From Octopus vulgaris (taxonomy: Eukaryota), in NCBI GenBank assembly GCA_951406725.2, contig OX597828.1, positions 29,760,001 through 29,824,000 of the forward strand: 64,000 nt of DNA, written 5' to 3'. The notes below the pieces were generated by a model that saw only the letters and a list, made by a program, of their open reading frames with translations, made no database searches and was not told the origin of the DNA. Below, piece after piece: positions 862-58,216 of this stretch. Both the position numbers and the translations under genes were made by a program. Position 1 is the first letter of the stretch; each line of letters starts with the position of its first letter.

Positions 862-903
<42 letters not shown>

Positions 904-907
<4 letters not shown>

Positions 908-1445
908 CAAAAGGGACATTAGCCATTTGAATGTGGCTAGGGACAGGGCAGGGCGGTGGGGGTGTTACTGATGCATTTAACCCCAGGCGATCATCAACGT
1001 CACCAGATAGGCTTGACACCATCACGGTGTCCTCTATCCTGCAAAGGGAGATCATTCCCCGAAGAAGCGGATGCCACATACGGACCCAGGTTTCAAGGTG
1101 TTTGCCTCTCGTCAACGTATTGTAGGCACCGCCCCTCGACGAACGACTCTCTGTGCAGGATATTTATATATAAATTTTCACGTAAATACATTTACTGATT
1201 TCGAAAATCTGTTCAACAGCAATAATAATTCTCTAAACGAGATATAGACAGTAACTGCTCCATAACAAAAGGGACATTAGCCATTTGAATGTGGCTAGGG
1301 ACAGGGCAGGGCGGTGGGGGTGTTACTGATGCATTTAACCCCAGGTGATCATCAACGTCACCAGATAGGAATGATCTCCCTTTGCAGGATAGAGGACACC
1401 GTGATGGTGTCAAGCCTATCTGGTGACGTTGATGATCGCCTGGGG
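904..1445 (-). mobile_element. Non-autonomous Penelope-like / retrozyme-like element, 358-bp unit with hammerhead, partial tandem plus inverted segment
   Basis: 108-bp direct repeat 904-1011 / 1262-1369 (1 mismatch, offset 358). 1368-1445 is the reverse complement of 981-1058. Hammerhead at 1071-1129. The 3' end abuts (TA)n at 863-905. Homologous along its whole length to 51297-51674. Confidence 0.75.
1071..1129 (-). ncRNA. Type I hammerhead ribozyme (U3 core variant)
   Basis: Minus strand reads AUACG-UUGACGA-GAGG-caaaca-CCUU-GAAAC-cugg-GUC-CGUAU. Stem I is AUACG/CGUAU and extends with bulges to GUGCC/GGCAU, stem II has 4 bp, stem III is short, and the GUC cleavage triplet is at 1085-1083. 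Confidence 0.75.
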
Positions 1446-6917: not shown

Positions 6918-7327
6918 GGCGCAGGAGTGGCTGTGTGGTAAGTAGCTTGTTTACCAACCACATGGTTCCGGGTTCAGTCCCACTACGTGGAATCTTGGGC
7001 AAGTGGCTTCTACTATAGCTTCGGGCCGACCAAGCCTTGTGAGTGGATTTGGTAGACGGAAACTGAAAGAAGCCCGTCGTATATATGTATATATATGCGT
7101 GTGTGTGTTTGTGTGTCTGTGTTTGTCCCCCCAACATCGCTTGACAACCGATGCTGGTGTGTTTATGTCCCCGTTACTTAGCGGTTCGGCAAAAGAGACC
7201 GATAGACTAAGTACTGGGCTTACAAAAGAATAAGTCCCGGGGTCGATTTGCTCGATTAAAGGCGGTGCTCCAGCATGGCCGCAGTCAAATGACCGAAACA
7301 AATAAAAGAATAAAAGAGTAAAGAGTA
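6918..7327 (+). mobile_element. tRNA-derived CORE-like SINE family A, full length
   Basis: Head ggcgcaggagtggctgtgtggtaag, B-box gggttcagtccc, CORE-like cttgggcaagt, internal (TA)/(TG) microsatellite and (aaagagt)n tail. Confidence 0.9.
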
Positions 7328-7604
7328 ATCAAATTACGAGGAAAAGAAGAATTCAGTTACTAGAGTTACTAGACATGACTGTGCGACTAAGAAGCTCTCT
7401 TTTTATAGTTCCAGATCGACCAATTCTTGTGAGTAAATTTTGAAGATGGAAACCGTGTGAAAGCTCATCGCATATCTGTGTGTGTGTGTATGTTTGTGTG
7501 TGTGCATGAGTGTGTGTCCGTGCGTATGAGTGTGTGTATGTGTGTGAGTATGTGTGCGTGTCTTAGTGTTGTAGATGTTCGTCAGAAGAGACTAATTAGT
7601 ACCA

Positions 7605-11030: not shown

Positions 11031-11248
11031 CTTACTCTCTTTTACTCTTTTACTTATTTCCGTCATTTGACTGCGGCCATGCTGGAGCACCGACTTTAGT
11101 CGAGTAAATCGACCCCAGGACTTATTATTCGTAAGCCTAGTACTTATTCTATCGGTCTCTTTTGCCGAACCGCTAAGTTACGGGGACGTAAACACACCAC
11201 CATCGGTTGTCAAGCGATGTTGGGGGGACAAACACACGCAAACACACA

Positions 11249-11315
<67 letters not shown>

Positions 11316-11478
11316 GACGGGCTTCTTTCAGTTTCCGTCTACCAAATCCACTCAAAAGGCTTCGGTTGGCCCGAGGCTATAGTAGAAGATACTTGCCGAA
11401 GGTGCCACGCAGTGGGACTGAACCCAGAACCATGTGGTTGGTAAGCAAGCTACTTAGCACACAGCCACTCCTGCGCCT
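11031..11478 (-). mobile_element. SINE family A, full length
   Basis: Reverse complement of 6918-7327 with an expanded internal (TA)n/(CATA)n tract. Confidence 0.9.
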
Positions 11479-13496
11479 ATATAGTTGTGCATATGTATAC
11501 ACACACAACTACACATACACACATGCAGACATACACAAATACACAGACAGTTGCACACACACACACATACACATACATGTGAGTCTAAGTGTTTGTGATT
11601 GTCTCCACATCGTTTGACAACCGGTGCTTGTTTCATTATATCCTCATATCGCAATGAATCGTCAACAGAAGTGATTGAATAAGTGCCACATATAAAAAGG
11701 AAATATTAGGGTTGATTTATTTGACTCAGCTCTTCAAGGAGGTGTCCTACCATGGTCGTCGTCGAATGAGCGAATCATATAAAAAGTAATAGGAAGATCA
11801 AACATTCTGCAGAATCTATGACACAAAAAGCTCTGTGTTGCGTGAAATTTTCACTGCTTATGAAACGATTCGTCAAATATTTACTACGTATTATATGAAA
11901 CGCATGAATTGAGATATATGAACAGCAATCAGGTAAGAAAATGAAACAACATTCTTACACTGAATACCTTCTTAAAACAAAAGCTTGGGCAGAAATACAT
12001 CAGAGGAAATTACAGTCGTGTGACAAATTACAAATCAGAGTCGATAGATCATCGGTCGAAGTGTCTTCTAACATGTTTAGATCATACTTTATGTTGTGAA
12101 TTCAATCTTCTCTCAGCTCCATGTACTTTTTGTATTTCTAAAGTCCATCAAATGAATACCTGTTACATACTGGAGTGGAAATTATTGACTACACGCTTGA
12201 AAACTCTGTCTTCGCATGACCAGAGTCAAATAACGAAACTAAAAGAAGAATATAATAGGAATATTATTAATTCTAATTTAAGAGATCTGAAAAAAAGATT
12301 CATTTTCAAAGGAAAAGAGATAATATTAGCTATTCTAATACTCACCAGGAATCTTTCTGTAACAAAATTGCATAATTATACTTTGAAATCTATATATCTT
12401 AATTACTTTTTCTTTCTAGAGAATACAAGTTAATCAGTTTCTTATTCTTTACGACTGAAACATACGAAGGTATATAATTCTATTAGACAGAATAATAGTT
12501 TGGAAATCAATGTGTTCAAGTATGAAATGTATCAATGAAGAACTTAATATGTCGATAATACTTAAATCAATTGTTACGGTCACAGTAGTAAAATTGCAAA
12601 TGCTTCTTGTCTCATGATCGATACTCTAATCAATAAATATTGCTGACAGGTTATTTTAACAATAACAATTGAAATATTTGATGTATATTTGAAATTCTTT
12701 GTCTGATGTCATACATATTTGATATCGTAACCATCAAGCACAAATTGGCTATCGAATGCAAAACCAATTTTCTGTCATTTCTAACTCCTACTAAAGTTCA
12801 GGTGTTTCTAGAAGCTTTTCCAAAATCCCATCCCGAAGAGAGGCCGTAAGGAAATTGGCACATTGTACACAACATCGCAGAAAAATATTCTTAAACCCTC
12901 CATTTATTGAAAGTAATCCCCGGCAATCAATTTATAATCGATGACAGCTAAGGTCGTCCTGATTAAACGGTGTGCCTCTATAGAAATAACATCAAAGTTA
13001 AACTTCAGACACAAGCAGAGCTTGTAATAACTGAAACACTAATAAAATTTTATATCTTCCGGTAAGTATTTCCTTGAAGTTAGGTTTTGATGTACACACT
13101 CACCACATACACACACACCCACACATAGACACATACATACATACATACAAACATACATACATACATAAATGCATGCATACACACAAAAACACGCATACAC
13201 ATATACATAGGCATCACGCATGCACACAAATGGACACGTATACAAGGACATACATACACGCGACGCACTAGAGAAGACACAGAACACACAATTCGATTAT
13301 ACAACCTTCACCTCAAGTAAGATCGAAAAGTATCTTTCACAATACAATATCTTCAAATATTTAAACACTATTTCATTGAATATCTCTCCCCTCTTTCTTT
13401 CCTATCTTTCTTACAGTTCCCATCTCTCTCTTTTGACTTCTTTATACAAGTGTCATATCTTTTTTTTCATCGAATTCTTTAGCAAATCATTACTCC

Positions 13497-23013: not shown

Positions 23014-23164
23014 GACGCAGGCGTAACTGTGTGGTGAGAAGCTTGCTTCCCAATCACATGGTTCCGAGTTCAGTTCCGCTGTGTGGCACCTTGGGCAAGT
23101 ATCTTTTGCTATAGCCTAGAGCCGACCAAAGCCTTATGAGACGGAAACTGAAAGAAGCCCGTCG

Positions 23165-23227
<63 letters not shown>

Positions 23228-23421
23228 GTTCCTGTGCCTATATTTGTCCCCCACCATCGCTTGGCAACCGATGTTGGTGTGCATATGTCCCTGTAACTTA
23301 CCGGTTCGGTAAAAGAGACCGATAGAATAAGCCCTGTGGTCGACTTTTTCGACTAAAAGCGGTGCTCCAGCATGGCAGTAGTCAAATGATTGAAAGGAGT
23401 AAATGAAAAGACTAAAAGAAT
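23014..23421 (+). mobile_element. SINE family A
   Basis: Head gacgcaggcgtaactgtgtgg, accttgggcaagt, internal (TA)n and tail. Confidence 0.88.
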
Positions 23422-23510
23422 ACGTATCAAATCCTGTTGTTTTCTGGAGCCAACTAGATTTCAATTGATTACTGATGTGTGGTAATTTGGGCAAGTGGTT
23501 TCTACTGTAG

Positions 23511-23731
23511 GCGAGCTGGCAGAAACGTTAGCACGCCGGGCGAAATGCTTAGCGGTATTTCGTCTGCGTTACGTTGTGAGTTCAAATTCCGCCGAGGTCG
23601 ACTTTGCCTTTCATCCTTTCGGGGTCGATAAATACCAGTTACGCACTGAGGTCGATGTAATCGACTTAATACCTATGTCTGTCCTTGTTTGTCCCCTCTG
23701 TGTTTAGCCCCTTGTGGGTAATAAAGAAATA
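23511..23731 (+). mobile_element. SINE family B nested in an old SINE A, with 14-16-bp TSD
   Basis: TSD ggtttctactgtag(gc) at 23497-23512 and 23732-23747. The host SINE A spans about 23470-24050. Confidence 0.9.
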
Positions 23732-27874: not shown

Positions 27875-28089
27875 TATTTATAATACTATACCAAGAACTT
27901 TCTCTTTGTCATCCTACTATATATATATATATATGTGTGTGTGTGTATTTGTGTGTTTGTGTGTGTGTGTGTGTGTTTGTTTTTGTGTGTGGATCAAACA
28001 CTTATGATTCAAACTTCATGGTGCTCTGATTTTCCATTTTGTCGCTAGTCGTCGGCCTTTAGGAGTTTCAATGAGAGTTAGCTGGAAGA

Positions 28090-28763
28090 GAGCCAATGTT
28101 TATAACACCATCCGATAGCATTGCTAGGCACTATACGGGCGTGACAGCCAATGACTTCAAGGGAAGATACTCTCAACACTTGCATTCATTTAGAACTAGA
28201 AACAGACAGAACTCCACTTACCTGTCACGCTCTCTCTGGAGACTTCGTGTCCTCCGAGATGAAACACCCAGCATCAAGTGGGCTATTGTTGAGAGGGCGC
28301 CACCATATTCACCCGGCGCCCCTAATTTCCAGGTCAGCCTCCGTGAAAAACTGCATATCATCTACCAACCCACAGTATCCATCAACAAGAGATACGAGGT
28401 ATCGTATTGCTCTCACCAGAGGTACACGCTTCTGGTAAACTTCAAGCCATTGGATTCCGACAATATGTGGGCATATTCATGTACACATATACTTATATAC
28501 TCCCCCATCTACCATCCTTTTCTATTTTCATCGCAACTACGCGAACGATTTCCTGTCTATCACGCGGTCAATTTCCTGTTCACCATGCGGTATTTTCTAA
28601 GTAATTGTTGTCGCTGATATACCAGCCTCAAACTGCAACATAACGTGACCTTCCTGGATCAATCACAGGCTTACGTCCAGTTATAAACACAGACTCCTGA
28701 TCGCCGGAGACTAGTCATGCGCTTGACACTCAAAGTATCAAGGAGTTTGAATTAAACGATGTG
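28090..28763 (+). mobile_element. Penelope-like element 3' end: GIY-YIG endonuclease remnant plus pLTR with decayed hammerhead
   Basis: ORF 28096-28617 (YTGVTANDFKGRYSQHLHSF...STYLSRSLW...IKWAIVERAPPY...SLREKLHII...INKRYEV.YCSH) resembles the PLE GIY-YIG C-terminus. A degenerate hammerhead lies at 28691-28748 and the element ends in (TA)-rich sequence. Confidence 0.75.
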
Positions 28764-29612: not shown

Positions 29613-31945
29613 GCGCAAGCGCTGCGCAGTGTTTTTCTTTTCACAGCTAGGTGTCACGACGCTGTACACCAACGTCGTGAAATATTGAACAAGTGAAGCA
29701 CAACTACAAGGTAAGACATTTGTATTATGAGTATTCAGTGGGGGTTTGTTGCCCGTGTTTATTTATTTTGTCGAACAAGAAATTTCCACTGAGTTCCGGG
29801 CATTTGTCTGCCTGTAGTTGAGCTTAGAGTCTCACTTAGCGGTGAGAAGTGTGTTTTGGGGGTGCATCTGTCGTCCAATAATTGCGAACATTGTGCTTAT
29901 TTTCTACCCATTTTTGGTGAAATTGTGTGACTGTTTTGTACCCTGGATTACCAAGTGGATTAACGAGTTGGCCAGGAGTACCAGGACAGCCAGAAGAACA
30001 GTTTGCTGTGTTTTTGAAGTTTTTCTGTCTTCTTCCTTCCTTCCTTCATTTGGACTTCTGTTTTTCTTTGAACCTTTCCCCCCAAAAAACATGGCAAAAA
30101 TGATGAACAATATTGCGTTGGAGTGGGAGATTTTTCCCACCCAAACAGGGGATGAAAGACTTTGATGAGAGGACGATGGTGTTGAGGACTTACTCAAAGT
30201 CGCTCGACACCAGCGCCCTCTTTAAAAATATACGAATTGAAAAAGAGTTGGCAGAGTATCTATCATCTATAAAATTTATTTCCAGGGGTTCAAGTATGCA
30301 ACGGTGTGGTTGCTATTTGACACCCCTGAAGAGGCTAGCAAATTTGCGAGCCAGCCCTTTGGGAGCAAAGAGATTTTGTTTCTTCCCACGTATTGTGGGA
30401 AGAAGTTGACAAGACCTTGGTTCTGCGGGTTACCCCCTGGGATAGAACCCGAGTGGGTAGAAGACACTATCCGCCGGAGTCTAGGTGGCAGCGGATCCAA
30501 GCTTCTTAATGTAAAAATGTTGCCGGCGGTTGATCGGGTTGGGTCAAAAGCTGTTTTTCATACTGAGGGACGCCTCCCCAAGTGCCACCTGAGCCTGGAA
30601 CCAGGCCACATTGAAAAGAACTGTTCCCAGGACCAGAGCTGTGACCTGGAAGAGTTGGTTGAGGAAGAGCTTCCCCTCCTCCTCCGGAGGGTGAGAAGGT
30701 GATGGTCGAGGATGTGGAGGCCTCCTCGACGAAAAAGGGGCGAAAGAAGAAGAAGGTAGGTGGCAATGGTTGCCCACCGAGGGATCCTAAGGCTGCGGAA
30801 GGGAAGGAAAATCTTCCGAACAGAACGGAAGACCTCCACCCCTCCCGTGGCAAAAGAAAAAAGAGAAGAAAAACGGGGCATTGCCGGCGGTTAATAAGGC
30901 ACTGCCGGCATGTCTCGAAACTCTGTAGGTTGTACTTGTGCCACCGACGGAAGAAACTGTGGCCCTTTACTAAGTGATAGACGAGGAATTCGTAATCCCA
31001 TTTGGAGGTGCTAGTGGACACGCCACATGATCTATGGTGTGGAAGAAGAGCTACGGCGTATGCGGATGACATCTCCATCATCGTGGCAGATGAGGGCCAG
31101 CTTCTAGTGGTGGAAAAGGCCATTAAAAGTTACAAGGCGGTGGCAGAAGCAAAGGTTAACAAGGACAAGTTGATCGGTTTGAAACTCGACACATGGAGGG
31201 GCAATCCGATGGCTTCCAATCACGTCGTGGGGCGTTGGATGGCAGGTCCTGTTAAGCTGCTTGGAGTTTTGATTGGTCCAGACTTCCAGATAGAGAAAAA
31301 TTGGAGTAAGGTGGCTAGCAAGGTAACTGCTCTTACCCAGACCTGGTCTGGGCGGGTGTTATCCTTGCTAGGGAGGGTGGAGGTGTGCAGATGTTTATAG
31401 CATCAGTAATCACCTACCGTATGACCGTGGTGCCTTGCCCTGATTTATGACTGAACAAGTTGGAGAGAATCCTTTTCCGCTTTTTGTAGAAGGGAGGAAA
31501 TCCACTTGTGAAGCGCTCTACCTGCTGCCAGAAAACGCTGAAGGGTGGGTTAGGGATGCCTTGGCTGAAGATGCGAAAATTGGCGTTTAGGTTGAGGCAA
31601 CTCTGAATTTACCTGGATGGAGAGCAGGTGTGGTCACACGCACGTCCGGTTCTATCTTCCGCAGTTAACGTCTTTAACGGACATGGGTACATGGTTCAAG
31701 CAGAGACCTAGAATAGGGAAGTGGCAATTGGAGTGCCGTCAGGCACTTCAGCCACTCTCTCGGGCGGGCAGTGCCAGCAGCAGGAGTTCAACCGAGGATT
31801 TGTATAGCGGATTAGTAGAGACCATGTCCGAAGACACCTTGGGGGAGACCCTGGGCTACGATGAAAATCATTTCATCAACCCGTTCAGGAGAACGTTCGG
31901 GCCGGGCTATCTGGATAATTACCAGAAATCCCTGGCTTGGTTAGG
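29613..31945 (+). mobile_element. Tx1/L1-like LINE, internally deleted: 5' UTR, ORF1 remnant, RT remnant
   Basis: ORF1 from 30091 has a degenerate zinc knuckle, CHLSLEPGHIEKNC. ORF 31002-31400 has YADDISII...AKVNKDK...VKLLGV...LSLLGR and downstream GGLGMP. The APE domain and RT N-terminus are missing. Frameshifts and stops are present. Confidence 0.85.
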
Positions 31946-33195: not shown

Positions 33196-33986
33196 TTTTA
33201 TAAGTTTCAGCCGAAAGGGTGTAGCTATACTTGGGCACTGCCAATAGACCGGCGGAGCAACACGACTCCGTTCTCATTCATCAGTGATAGATCCTCCCAT
33301 TATTTCACCATTTTTGTGGCTTATCAACATCGTGTACTTGGATCATACCTGATTATATATGTGTGTGTGTGTGTGTTTATGTGTGTGTGTGTATGTATGT
33401 GTGTTTGCGCGCGTATAATGTAAATGTGTGCACGTATGTGTGTGTTCTTCTTTTCTATGATACTAAGTTGTTCATAAAAATTCAACTACTCAGAACAATT
33501 GTTTTGATTATGAACCTTATCCAACTTTAATGTGATTGTTTGGGGTTCTTCCCGCTCAACTCTGGCTCACTCGATCAATTCTACGATCAACTATTTATCT
33601 CACGTGCTCCGTCCCTTTCACTGAGCGAATGATGTTCTTTGAATAAGATTTTTTCTGCTAATTCTCATAGAATGTGTTACCGCGTAAAAGTTCGTTGATG
33701 GATTTCCCTGCTTAATTCTCACAAAAATGCGTTATAAGTGTTCCCGATTGGTTCGTACTGGCCAACAGTGAAACACTTAAATTTCCAATATTTCATGTGG
33801 ACTGAAATAGTGCAACAGAACTTTTGAATCTCTTGAGCATGTATGAGAGCTGTGGCTGAAAATTTCTATGTGAACCAGTTTTTGATTGGTCACTGATTGA
33901 AGGAGTGTTGTTTATTGAAAGTATTTGAATAACGAAGATACTTAACGCTGAATTTGTCTCTCTCTTTTTGTTCTCTTATTTGACAG

Positions 33987-43291: not shown

Positions 43292-43916
43292 CAGTAGTTT
43301 TATTTTTATAGCGTGCTTTCTCTTCACTACCGAGCGCAGCTCTGTGTGCCTTAGGTATGTGCTGTGGTTTGTTGTGATGCTCTGATGGTTATTGTATGGA
43401 AAATGTTCTGCGTAGGATGTGTGCAGTGCCTAGTAGTCCAATTTTCTGTATGTTATATGTGTTTGTAAGTCCTGGTGTTTTTGTTATGTATTTGTCTGAA
43501 TATTTTTTTATCAGGCATAATGCACCTACTATGATAGGAATTGTTTCTGTTTTCAGATTCCACATTCTGGTTACCTCTATTTCCAGGTCTTTGTATTTTG
43601 AGAGTTTCTCCATTTCTTTTAGAGACACGTTGTCATCAGCCGGTATTGATACATCAATTAGAAAGCATTTTTTTTCTTCATGATCTCTGACAACTATATC
43701 TGGTCTGTTGGCCTTAATTTCTCTATCTGTGTGTATCGGCATATCCCAGAGTATGGTTGCTTTCTCGTTTTCTGTGACCTTTTCTGGTGTGTGCCTATAC
43801 CATCTTTTTTTCTGTTGTTATTCCATAATGTTGGCATAGCTTCCAATGTATGTAGGTTCCAACTCTGTCATGTCTGTGAATATATTCCTTCTTAGCCAGG
43901 ACTGGGCAGCTAGAGA
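43292..43916 (-). mobile_element. Young 5'-truncated R4/Dong-like RLE retrotransposon with open restriction-like endonuclease frame
   Basis: Open frame SCPVLAKKEYIHRHDRVG...ILWDMPIHTDREIKANRPDIV...LIDVSIP...KLSKYKDL contains the RHD, PD..D and K..KY motifs of the RLE domain. Both flanks are (ATT)n. Confidence 0.9.
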
Positions 43917-51208: not shown

Positions 51209-51671
51209 GTGTTACTGTAGCTTTTTAGCCCCAGGAGATCATCGTCTCCAGCTGCCTTTAGACACACTTTATGTGCCCTTGAAGTATTTGCAAAGGGATG
51301 GCTTTTATACTTTACATTGTCAAGCGGTTACTGTTTACATCTCGCTCTGAGATTTAAGAATGCTTACAGTCAGTTTTTCGAAATCAGTGGCAGACGTCAC
51401 TAGAAAAAACTCTTATATATTTGCAAAGCAGGCCTTGTCTTTCATTGTGACCTGGTGGTTACCGCCCGTTGATAAGAGACAATAATCTCGAAACTGGTCC
51501 GTGCGTATCACTCAGGCTTACGAGGAAGGGATGGCCTCCCTTTGCAAATACTTCAAGGGCACAGAAAGTGTGTCTAAAGCCAGCTGGAGACGATGATCTT
51601 CTGGGGCTAAAAAGCTACAGTAACACCCCCACTTTGTGGTTAGCCATATTGAGATGGCTTTTATACTTTAC

Positions 51672-51674
<3 letters not shown>
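51209..51674 (+). mobile_element. Non-autonomous Penelope-like / retrozyme-like element, 356-bp unit with hammerhead, partial tandem plus inverted segment
   Basis: Inverted arms 51209-51298 / 51537-51626. 22-bp direct repeat 51297-51318 / 51653-51674 (offset 356). Hammerhead at 51463-51505 and (TA)n on both sides. Homologous to 904-1445. Confidence 0.75.
51463..51505 (+). ncRNA. Type I hammerhead ribozyme (U3-A8 core variant)
   Basis: CGCCCG-UUGAUAA-GAGA-caauaa-UCUC-GAAAC-ug-GUC-CGUGCG. Stem I pairs at 5 of 6 positions, stem II has 4 bp, stem III is minimal, and the GUC triplet is at 51497-51499. Confidence 0.7.
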
Positions 51675-51743
<69 letters not shown>

Positions 51744-57903: not shown

Positions 57904-58216
57904 TCTTTATATATAAAAGTGAAGTTGTGTGTCTGTCTCCTACGATTTAGATTCCTAACTACTCCCACATTTTGCAGTGCAGTGTAACCAAAAGCGGGTA
58001 AAAAAAATTACCATCATTTTCCCTCATTTTTAATGCATTTTTTTTGCTATTATATAAGGGAAGTAACTCTCTAAAAATGTATTATTAAATCTCAGAACGT
58101 AAAACGCTACGGTAACACCCCCCCTTTGTGGTTAGCCATATAGAGATGGCTATTATAAAAATGCTTATATAGTTATTTCCCTTACAAACCCGAGCAACGC
58201 CGAGCGATACTGCTAG
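57904..58216 (+). mobile_element. Non-autonomous Helitron (313 bp)
   Basis: Starts A|TCTTTATATATAAAAG, has a subterminal imperfect hairpin cccgagcaacgccgag, ends CTAG|T, and has no TSD. Confidence 0.8.

Follow-up and report, generated by a model that had tools for sequence, protein, structure and literature searches.

A multi-copy, retrozyme-like repeat with a U3·G8 wobble in its predicted hammerhead core

Introduction

Two questions meet at the locus described here: how much natural drift the pair between positions 3 and 8 of the hammerhead core allows, and whether ribozyme cutting is necessary for Penelope-type elements. The window, by which we mean the whole 64-kb stretch of DNA that was analysed, is AT-rich, animal-type DNA rich in microsatellites, and we presume that it resembles a cephalopod genome. 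A preliminary description had proposed two hammerhead cores that read UUGACGA and UUGAUAA instead of CUGANGA, and both were borne out, at 1115-1109 on the minus strand (site 1) and at 51469-51475 on the plus strand (site 2). It had further taken the differences between the two sites as compensatory and as a mark of selection for catalysis, and had argued from a short stem III that cleavage takes place in a dimer. Neither the U3-A8 core nor the argument for a dimer is new, both having appeared in passages of PMC3088659 and PMC4209133. Here and below, papers are cited for such passages.

Results

The two hammerheads are:
1070..1130, minus strand: type I hammerhead fold, site 1, predicted from sequence and fold
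51454..51512, plus strand: type I hammerhead fold, site 2, predicted from sequence and fold, with partial Rfam support

The site 1 core begins with U3 at 1115 and continues through U4, G5 and A6 to C7 (1111), G8 (1110) and A9 (1109). Its 3-8 pair, normally fixed as C-G, is a U3·G8 wobble. Stem II pairs GAGG with CCUU (1108-1105 with 1098-1095) and has the loop CAAACA; GAAA lies at 1094-1091 and C17 at 1083. Proximal stem I (1121-1116/1082-1077) pairs AUACG with CGUAU, and past an internal loop, CUAC/UG, there is a distal stem I helix of 5 bp (1130-1126/1074-1070). Stem III is the palindrome ACCUGGGU (1091-1084), and the predicted cut, after GUC, falls between 1083 and 1082. At site 2, U3 (51469) pairs with A8 (51474), leaving neither site with the canonical C3-G8 pair. 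Stem II of site 2 is GAGA/UCUC with loop 2 CAAUAA, C17 is at 51499, stem III is ACUGGU, and the cut is predicted between 51499 and 51500; stem I, CGCCCG/CGUGCG, is followed by the internal loop UUAC/UA and then by a 5-bp distal helix. The pairing of stem II claimed earlier is present at both sites. The claim that stem I keeps its pairing was right for AUACG/CGUAU, but stem I of site 2 contains a C×U mismatch (51466/51502) and the sixth proximal pair of site 1 is an A×G mismatch (1121/1077). The distal helix beyond the YUAC/UR loop had been overlooked in both copies.

Several tests bear on whether these are hammerheads. The three-helix junction (N3 UGA N7 N8 A9, GAAA, U16.1-H17) is present, with 94% of cells paired compared with 21-51% in slid controls. 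A strict descriptor (3-8 pair, stem I of at least 5, stem II of at least 4, short stem III) matched site 1 and gave no match in any of 30 dinucleotide shuffles of the window. A loose descriptor picked out 3 distinct cores in the window itself and a mean of 0.5 matches per shuffle; the C×U mismatch in stem I kept it from finding site 2. Site 2 matched the Rfam model Hammerhead_HH9 at 32.2 bits (E 2.6e-6, under the gathering score of 52); site 1 had no hammerhead match in Rfam up to E 10. Judged from sequence and predicted fold, both motifs are real hammerhead folds, of full type I with an extended stem I. Both also carry the letters of a tertiary-contact motif, a CAAnnA loop 2 together with the YUAC/UR stem I internal loop, and because a distal stem I helix lies beyond that loop, both would class as canonical, tertiary-contact hammerheads and not as the minimal Penelope type. 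Stem III is in each case a self-complementary palindrome of the dimer type, with predicted self-duplexes of -9.8 and -3.2 kcal/mol and no predicted monomer hairpin.

A third hammerhead-like motif is found at 33275-33344 on the minus strand, with the core UUGAUAA (U3-A8), loop 2 CAAAAA and a GUAC internal loop. Its stems I and III are irregular, and it belongs to an insert of about 150 nt between (TA)n runs. It scored 14.2 bits (E 0.54) with Rfam HH9 and 15.7 bits (E 0.035) with our own model, and may be a degenerate member of a different Penelope or retrozyme family. Matches of the whole window to Rfam miRNA models (150 of the 248 matches listed) were rejected as (TA)n low-complexity noise.

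Sites 1 and 2 belong to two copies of one repeat, for which the following features were mapped:
905..1262, minus strand: monomer, site 1 copy, 358 nt, without a conserved ORF; hammerhead at the tip of a long predicted rod
1263..1369, minus strand: partial head-to-tail repeat, site 1; the monomer's 3' 107 nt, upstream of the monomer, 99% identical
1368..1445, plus strand: inverted truncated piece, site 1, 78 nt, 100% complementary to 981-1058
863..906, no strand: likely target of the site 1 insertion, a (TA)n run at its 3' end
51319..51675, plus strand: monomer, site 2 copy, 357 nt, 64% identical to site 1, followed by (TA)n
51297..51318, plus strand: partial head-to-tail repeat, site 2, 22 nt, identical to 51653-51674
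51209..51298, minus strand: inverted truncated piece, site 2, 90 nt, 97% complementary to 51537-51626
58100..58157, plus strand: fragment from the 3' terminus of the site 2 subfamily, 58 nt at 91% identity, without a hammerhead

The window thus holds two full copies and one fragment. The two monomers are homologous across their whole length (229 of 359 aligned positions identical), with a repeat period of 358 nt at site 1 and 356 nt at site 2. The inverted piece of site 2 stops at an AC-rich motif about 49 nt before the monomer's 3' end. Six-frame translation revealed no reading frame common to both monomers, no ORF (RT plus GIY-YIG) was found in or adjoining either insertion, and no autonomous Penelope-like partner was found in the window. 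With lengths of 358 and 357 nt and a single type I hammerhead each, both copies are non-coding units that fall within the roughly 150-450 nt of non-LTR retrozymes. Each site shows a partial tandem, an inverted 5'-truncated copy and a microsatellite target. Craig et al., in the passages cited, give partial tandems, an inverted 5'-truncated copy, a one-sided tail and (TA)n targets as Penelope-like signatures. Because the partial tandem, inverted 5' piece and (TA)n target make up this signature, the element, a non-coding repeat of about 357 nt, is likely to be a non-LTR retrozyme copied by the enzymes of a Penelope-like element.

The site 1 insertion comprises 465 nt from a unit of 358 nt and runs unbroken through the cut site; its template would therefore have been circular or an uncut multimer. 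Contigs of all four public sequencing runs that were compared with the element also contain the end-to-start joint (1262→905), three of the four joints having only 24 letters on the short side. These runs yielded 888, 685, 275 and 60 contigs matching the element, which are contig counts and not copy numbers. No full tandem with two hammerheads was seen in the window or in the contigs of the four runs. The palindrome and the lack of a monomer hairpin agree with the dimer cleavage proposed earlier, but each insertion in the window carries a single hammerhead, and a transcript of either one therefore has no second hammerhead of its own to pair with. The inverted pieces start just downstream of the predicted cut, by 24 nt at site 1 and about 38 nt at site 2. 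These starts and the AC-rich end at site 2 recall the two internal RT start sites and the tail of anole Penelope, as far as the published passages describe them.

Other retroelement-like sequences are scattered through the window. At 28075-28617 on the plus strand, a stop-free frame resembles the GIY-YIG endonuclease end of a Penelope-type protein (Atlas score 0.95); it had no relevant Pfam match and no longer homologue. The fragment suggests that endonuclease-bearing Penelope elements exist in the genome. Retroelement fragments occur in 30241-31400 on the plus strand, with a weak RVT_1 match at 30996-31397 (E 0.011). The ORF at 43389-43817 on the minus strand is presumably the C-terminal restriction-like endonuclease of a non-LTR element, and had no family match. 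A SINE-like repeat with a common translated stretch runs through the stop-free frames at 6951-7328, 11192-11617 and 23054-23527.

The state of the core in the family was read from public sequencing data. Twenty listed runs under four organism labels contain part of the stretch, and contigs of 4 of the 24 listed runs (X1, X3, X7 and X9) were compared with 905-1262 at 80% likeness and with a 2% reporting floor. X1, which was read to about 80%, may be the source of the window; variants are given as found among the rows listed. G8 accounted for 55-99.7% of summed depth at 1110 and was the majority letter in all four runs, shares that are valid for the site-1-like subfamily only, since the 80% cut-off leaves out site-2-like copies. 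The A8 share was 0.3% in X1, 45% in X3, 32% in X7 and 10% in X9. In terms of summed contig depth, which is not copy number, G8 reached about 9,940, 14,135, 2,160 and 590 in the same order. The window copy has private changes at 1121, 980 and 1215, and its own letter at 1121 had a summed depth of about 135 in X1 and 0 in X3, X7 and X9; in those three runs a C at 1121 restores the stem I pair. G8 is far deeper than the private letter at 1121, and U3·G8 must therefore be carried by many other copies. These other copies fall under three organism labels, and U3·G8 is a multi-copy state of the subfamily, not decay of the window's copy. Nor is the family consensus canonical C3-G8 with random decay, the pattern that the preliminary description had set against its own reading: among the listed variants, no row at 1115 carries a C3 allele in any of the four runs.

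The neighbouring letters indicate how the variants are distributed. U7 reaches 30-44% of depth in each of the four runs; X1 shows this share with hardly any A8, so both C7 and U7 are found alongside G8. C7-G8 is a CpG. Random CpG decay could in principle have produced A8, but no variants are listed for the CpGs at 1081 and 1116, and A8 therefore looks like a letter of subfamily level. Since site 2 and the third motif (33344-33275) both read UUGAUAA, a change from A8 to G8 is suggested, through the series UUGAUAA → UUGAUGA → UUGACGA, by parsimony on unphased variants and with no tree. A variant at 1087 (31-48% of depth) makes the stem III palindrome perfect, turning two G·U pairs of the predicted dimer helix into Watson-Crick pairs and its calculated energy from -9.8 to -11.4 kcal/mol. 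A further variant, at window position 1108, produces a U10.1·U11.1 mismatch and reaches 20-51% of depth in all four runs, shares similar to those of U7. It is a second core-adjacent relaxation in the same subfamily as U3·G8; U10.1·U11.1 is described as a tolerated mismatch of natural hammerheads in PMC3088659.

Variation within the hammerhead was then compared between core and stems. Contig variants occupy 11 of the 61 positions in 1070-1130. One of 12 core positions is variable (position 8) compared with 10 of 49 other positions, which is not significant (p=0.44), and the identity of sites 1 and 2 at 11 of 12 core positions is not significant either (p=0.06). Position 8 takes only letters able to pair with U3 (G and A). 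Six of the eight variable paired positions keep or restore the pair and two break it, one of these being U10.1·U11.1. Between the two copies, 4 of 18 pairs are changed on both sides, and 41 of 500 shuffles reach the observed covariation; covariation statistics from two sequences are uninformative. Selection for catalysis, which the preliminary description had read from covariation, is not established by these numbers, and the supposed compensatory change at 3-8 is one-sided, G8 versus A8 opposite a fixed U3. For both monomers the predicted fold (z -3.0 and -2.7) is a long rod with the hammerhead at its tip and with matching hairpins after the rod. Folding the two jointly gave -69.2 kcal/mol, compared with -31.2±5.3 (lowest -49.0) for 100 column shuffles; the 15 both-side changes of this joint fold lie within the control range (mean 8.1, maximum 18). 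The pattern of variation fits selection on the hammerhead, without proving it.

Discussion

The repeat can be placed among known systems. Metazoan non-LTR retrozymes, among them mussel units of 350-390 bp and axolotl Rtz331/353, were described by Cervera & de la Peña 2020 (PMC7229834) and Li et al. 2026 (bioRxiv 10.64898/2026.07.22.740005), the latter proposing a Penelope origin. The element resembles these in its non-coding unit of 150-450 nt, its type I hammerhead with loop 1-loop 2 contacts (here predicted from the letters), its weak palindromic helix III, its highly paired monomer and its head-to-tail junction. The U·U at the base of helix II of axolotl HHR_Amex2 (PMC7229834) is also found here, as a variant. 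Unlike metazoan retrozymes as those passages describe them, the core here has U3 (U3-A8 or U3·G8), and the window copies, which are known from DNA alone, are solo monomers with a partial tandem and inverted pieces.

Penelope-like minimal hammerheads, for which Cervera & de la Peña 2014 (PMC4209133) gave a dimer model based on a palindromic helix III, share with the repeat this helix, the U3-A8 core and the insertion anatomy. The short helix I without a defined loop 1, the long helix II and the extra base of that class were not found here: helix I has 6 bp plus a distal helix, helix II has 4 bp with a CAAnnA loop, A9 is followed by no extra base, and no ORF is attached. Rfam Hammerhead_HH9 (RF02275, clan CL00010) is close to site 2, which aligns over all 77 model positions and has the UUAC internal loop and a CAA-rich loop 2; HH9 differs in having C3-G8 and a longer helix III, and did not detect site 1.

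Variant cores of both kinds have precedents. Natural U3-A8 covariation and U10.1·U11.1 were reported by Perreault et al. 2011 (PMC3088659), and the U3-A8 core has about 1,300 matches in Schistosoma mansoni (PMC4209133). U3·G8 appears in one supplement row of PMC4209133, for the minimal hammerhead Saccoglossus kowalevskii(1), UUGAAGA. A saltern variant, U2a G2b U3 U4 G5 A6 C7 G8 A9 (PMC7151607), agrees with site 1 in all seven core letters; unlike site 1, it has a 2-nt insertion and is described from halophile viruses as rare, not as an amplified genomic repeat. The patterns of the present family had no matches in metagenome, viral and prokaryote genome collections. Our literature search found no paper on mollusc or cephalopod retrozymes with variant cores, none on an amplified U3·G8 hammerhead family and none on the element of sites 1 and 2 itself. 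This is weak evidence of novelty, since the search did not extend to Przybilski & Hammann 2007 or to Lünse et al. 2017, either of which may bear on the activity of U3·G8 and on its precedents. Dimer cleavage of Penelope-like minimal hammerheads was reportedly treated by Lünse et al. 2017. What is already known, then, is U3-A8, the palindromic dimer helix and the retrozyme anatomy; what is unusual is a multi-copy G8/A8 polymorphism opposite a fixed U3.

On balance we lean towards a wobble-core ribozyme that may be slow and dimer-assisted but functional, in a retrozyme mobilised by Penelope. Its cycle can be sketched by analogy with retrozymes and Penelope elements in the literature. Transcription would proceed from master copies in tandem, two hammerheads would pair through the ACCU(G/A)GGU palindrome to form helix III, and the CAAnnA loop 2 would dock on the stem I internal loop. 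Cutting after GUC would free monomers able to circularise. A Penelope RT/GIY-YIG protein would nick (TA)n DNA, and reverse transcription of a circle or uncut multimer for more than one round would give the partial tandem and the inverted 5' piece. U3·G8 probably goes back to the U3-A8 core of the family, in which A8 became G, and may be tolerated through tertiary contacts and a dimer helix that offset the wobble; among hammerheads with tertiary contacts, tolerance of core changes differs (PMC3884650).

The subfamily could also have been amplified with a near-dead U3·G8 hammerhead, the Penelope RT using uncut multimeric RNA, and the fold persisting by U3-A8 ancestry or as a rod that serves as a protein-binding platform. 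We regard this as a possible, if rather doubtful, account. In a pairwise mutational scan, single mutants of the core were low in activity and only a C/G swap rescued the 3-8 pair, other mutants there being weak (PMC9901934). Ribozyme-dead anole Penelope mutants still inserted in vitro, and the anole ribozyme required protein to cut (PMC11167929); eight of nine Xenopus retrozyme dimers tested showed no cleavage (bioRxiv 2026.07.22.740005); and Naiad Penelope elements, which target (TA)n, spread without hammerheads (Craig et al.). Both insertions span the cut site intact, and in some copies the variant core is joined by a nearby U10.1·U11.1. A hammerhead that no longer matters is, however, less easily reconciled with 11 other core positions that are identical between copies 64% identical overall and have no listed variants in four runs, with a position 8 restricted to letters that pair with U3, or with the retained stem III palindrome and loop contacts, none of them individually significant.

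The remaining accounts dispense with either the retrozyme or the wobble. If the copies were no more than pseudo-LTR ends left by autonomous Penelope-like elements that had lost their 5' part, there would be no independent retrozyme. The insertion anatomy is of the Penelope type (Craig et al.), Penelope hammerheads sit in pseudo-LTRs (PMC4209133) and retrozymes derive from pseudo-LTRs (bioRxiv 2026.07.22.740005), but the monomer's own 3' end is found upstream of each monomer (period 358/356), the joint recurs in all four runs, the copies share no conserved reading frame, and the hammerhead has canonical loop contacts, as in retrozymes, and not the minimal form; we consider this improbable. Less probable still is an origin of U3·G8 in this one copy alone, from C3-G8 or U3-A8, whether by decay or by an error of assembly. 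The private changes of the window copy would fit such an origin, which is largely refuted by the lack of a listed C3, by the G8 majority in four runs, three of them without the private 1121 letter, and by the neighbouring CpGs at 1081 and 1116, which have no listed variants.

The wobble-core retrozyme favoured above would matter for both opening questions. In this family, matched G8 and A8 alleles occur naturally in a single sequence background, and both are highly represented. Should G8 cut, it would form a natural class of wobble-core ribozymes overlooked by the usual descriptors, as Rfam missed site 1; should it not, the family would give genomic evidence that retrozymes can spread without cleavage. 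We advance only tentatively the fuller claim that a retrozyme lineage, found under at least three organism labels, was amplified with a functional U3·G8 wobble in its active site. If true, this lineage would be an intermediate between C3-G8 and U3-A8 of a kind that in vitro work suggests is crippled, captured as the stepwise series UUGAUAA, UUGAUGA and UUGACGA. Standard CUGANGA and UUGANAA descriptors would miss such families, and the wobble itself would work as a switch tuned to slow cutting, so that enough RNA stays uncut or circular to serve the Penelope reverse transcriptase.
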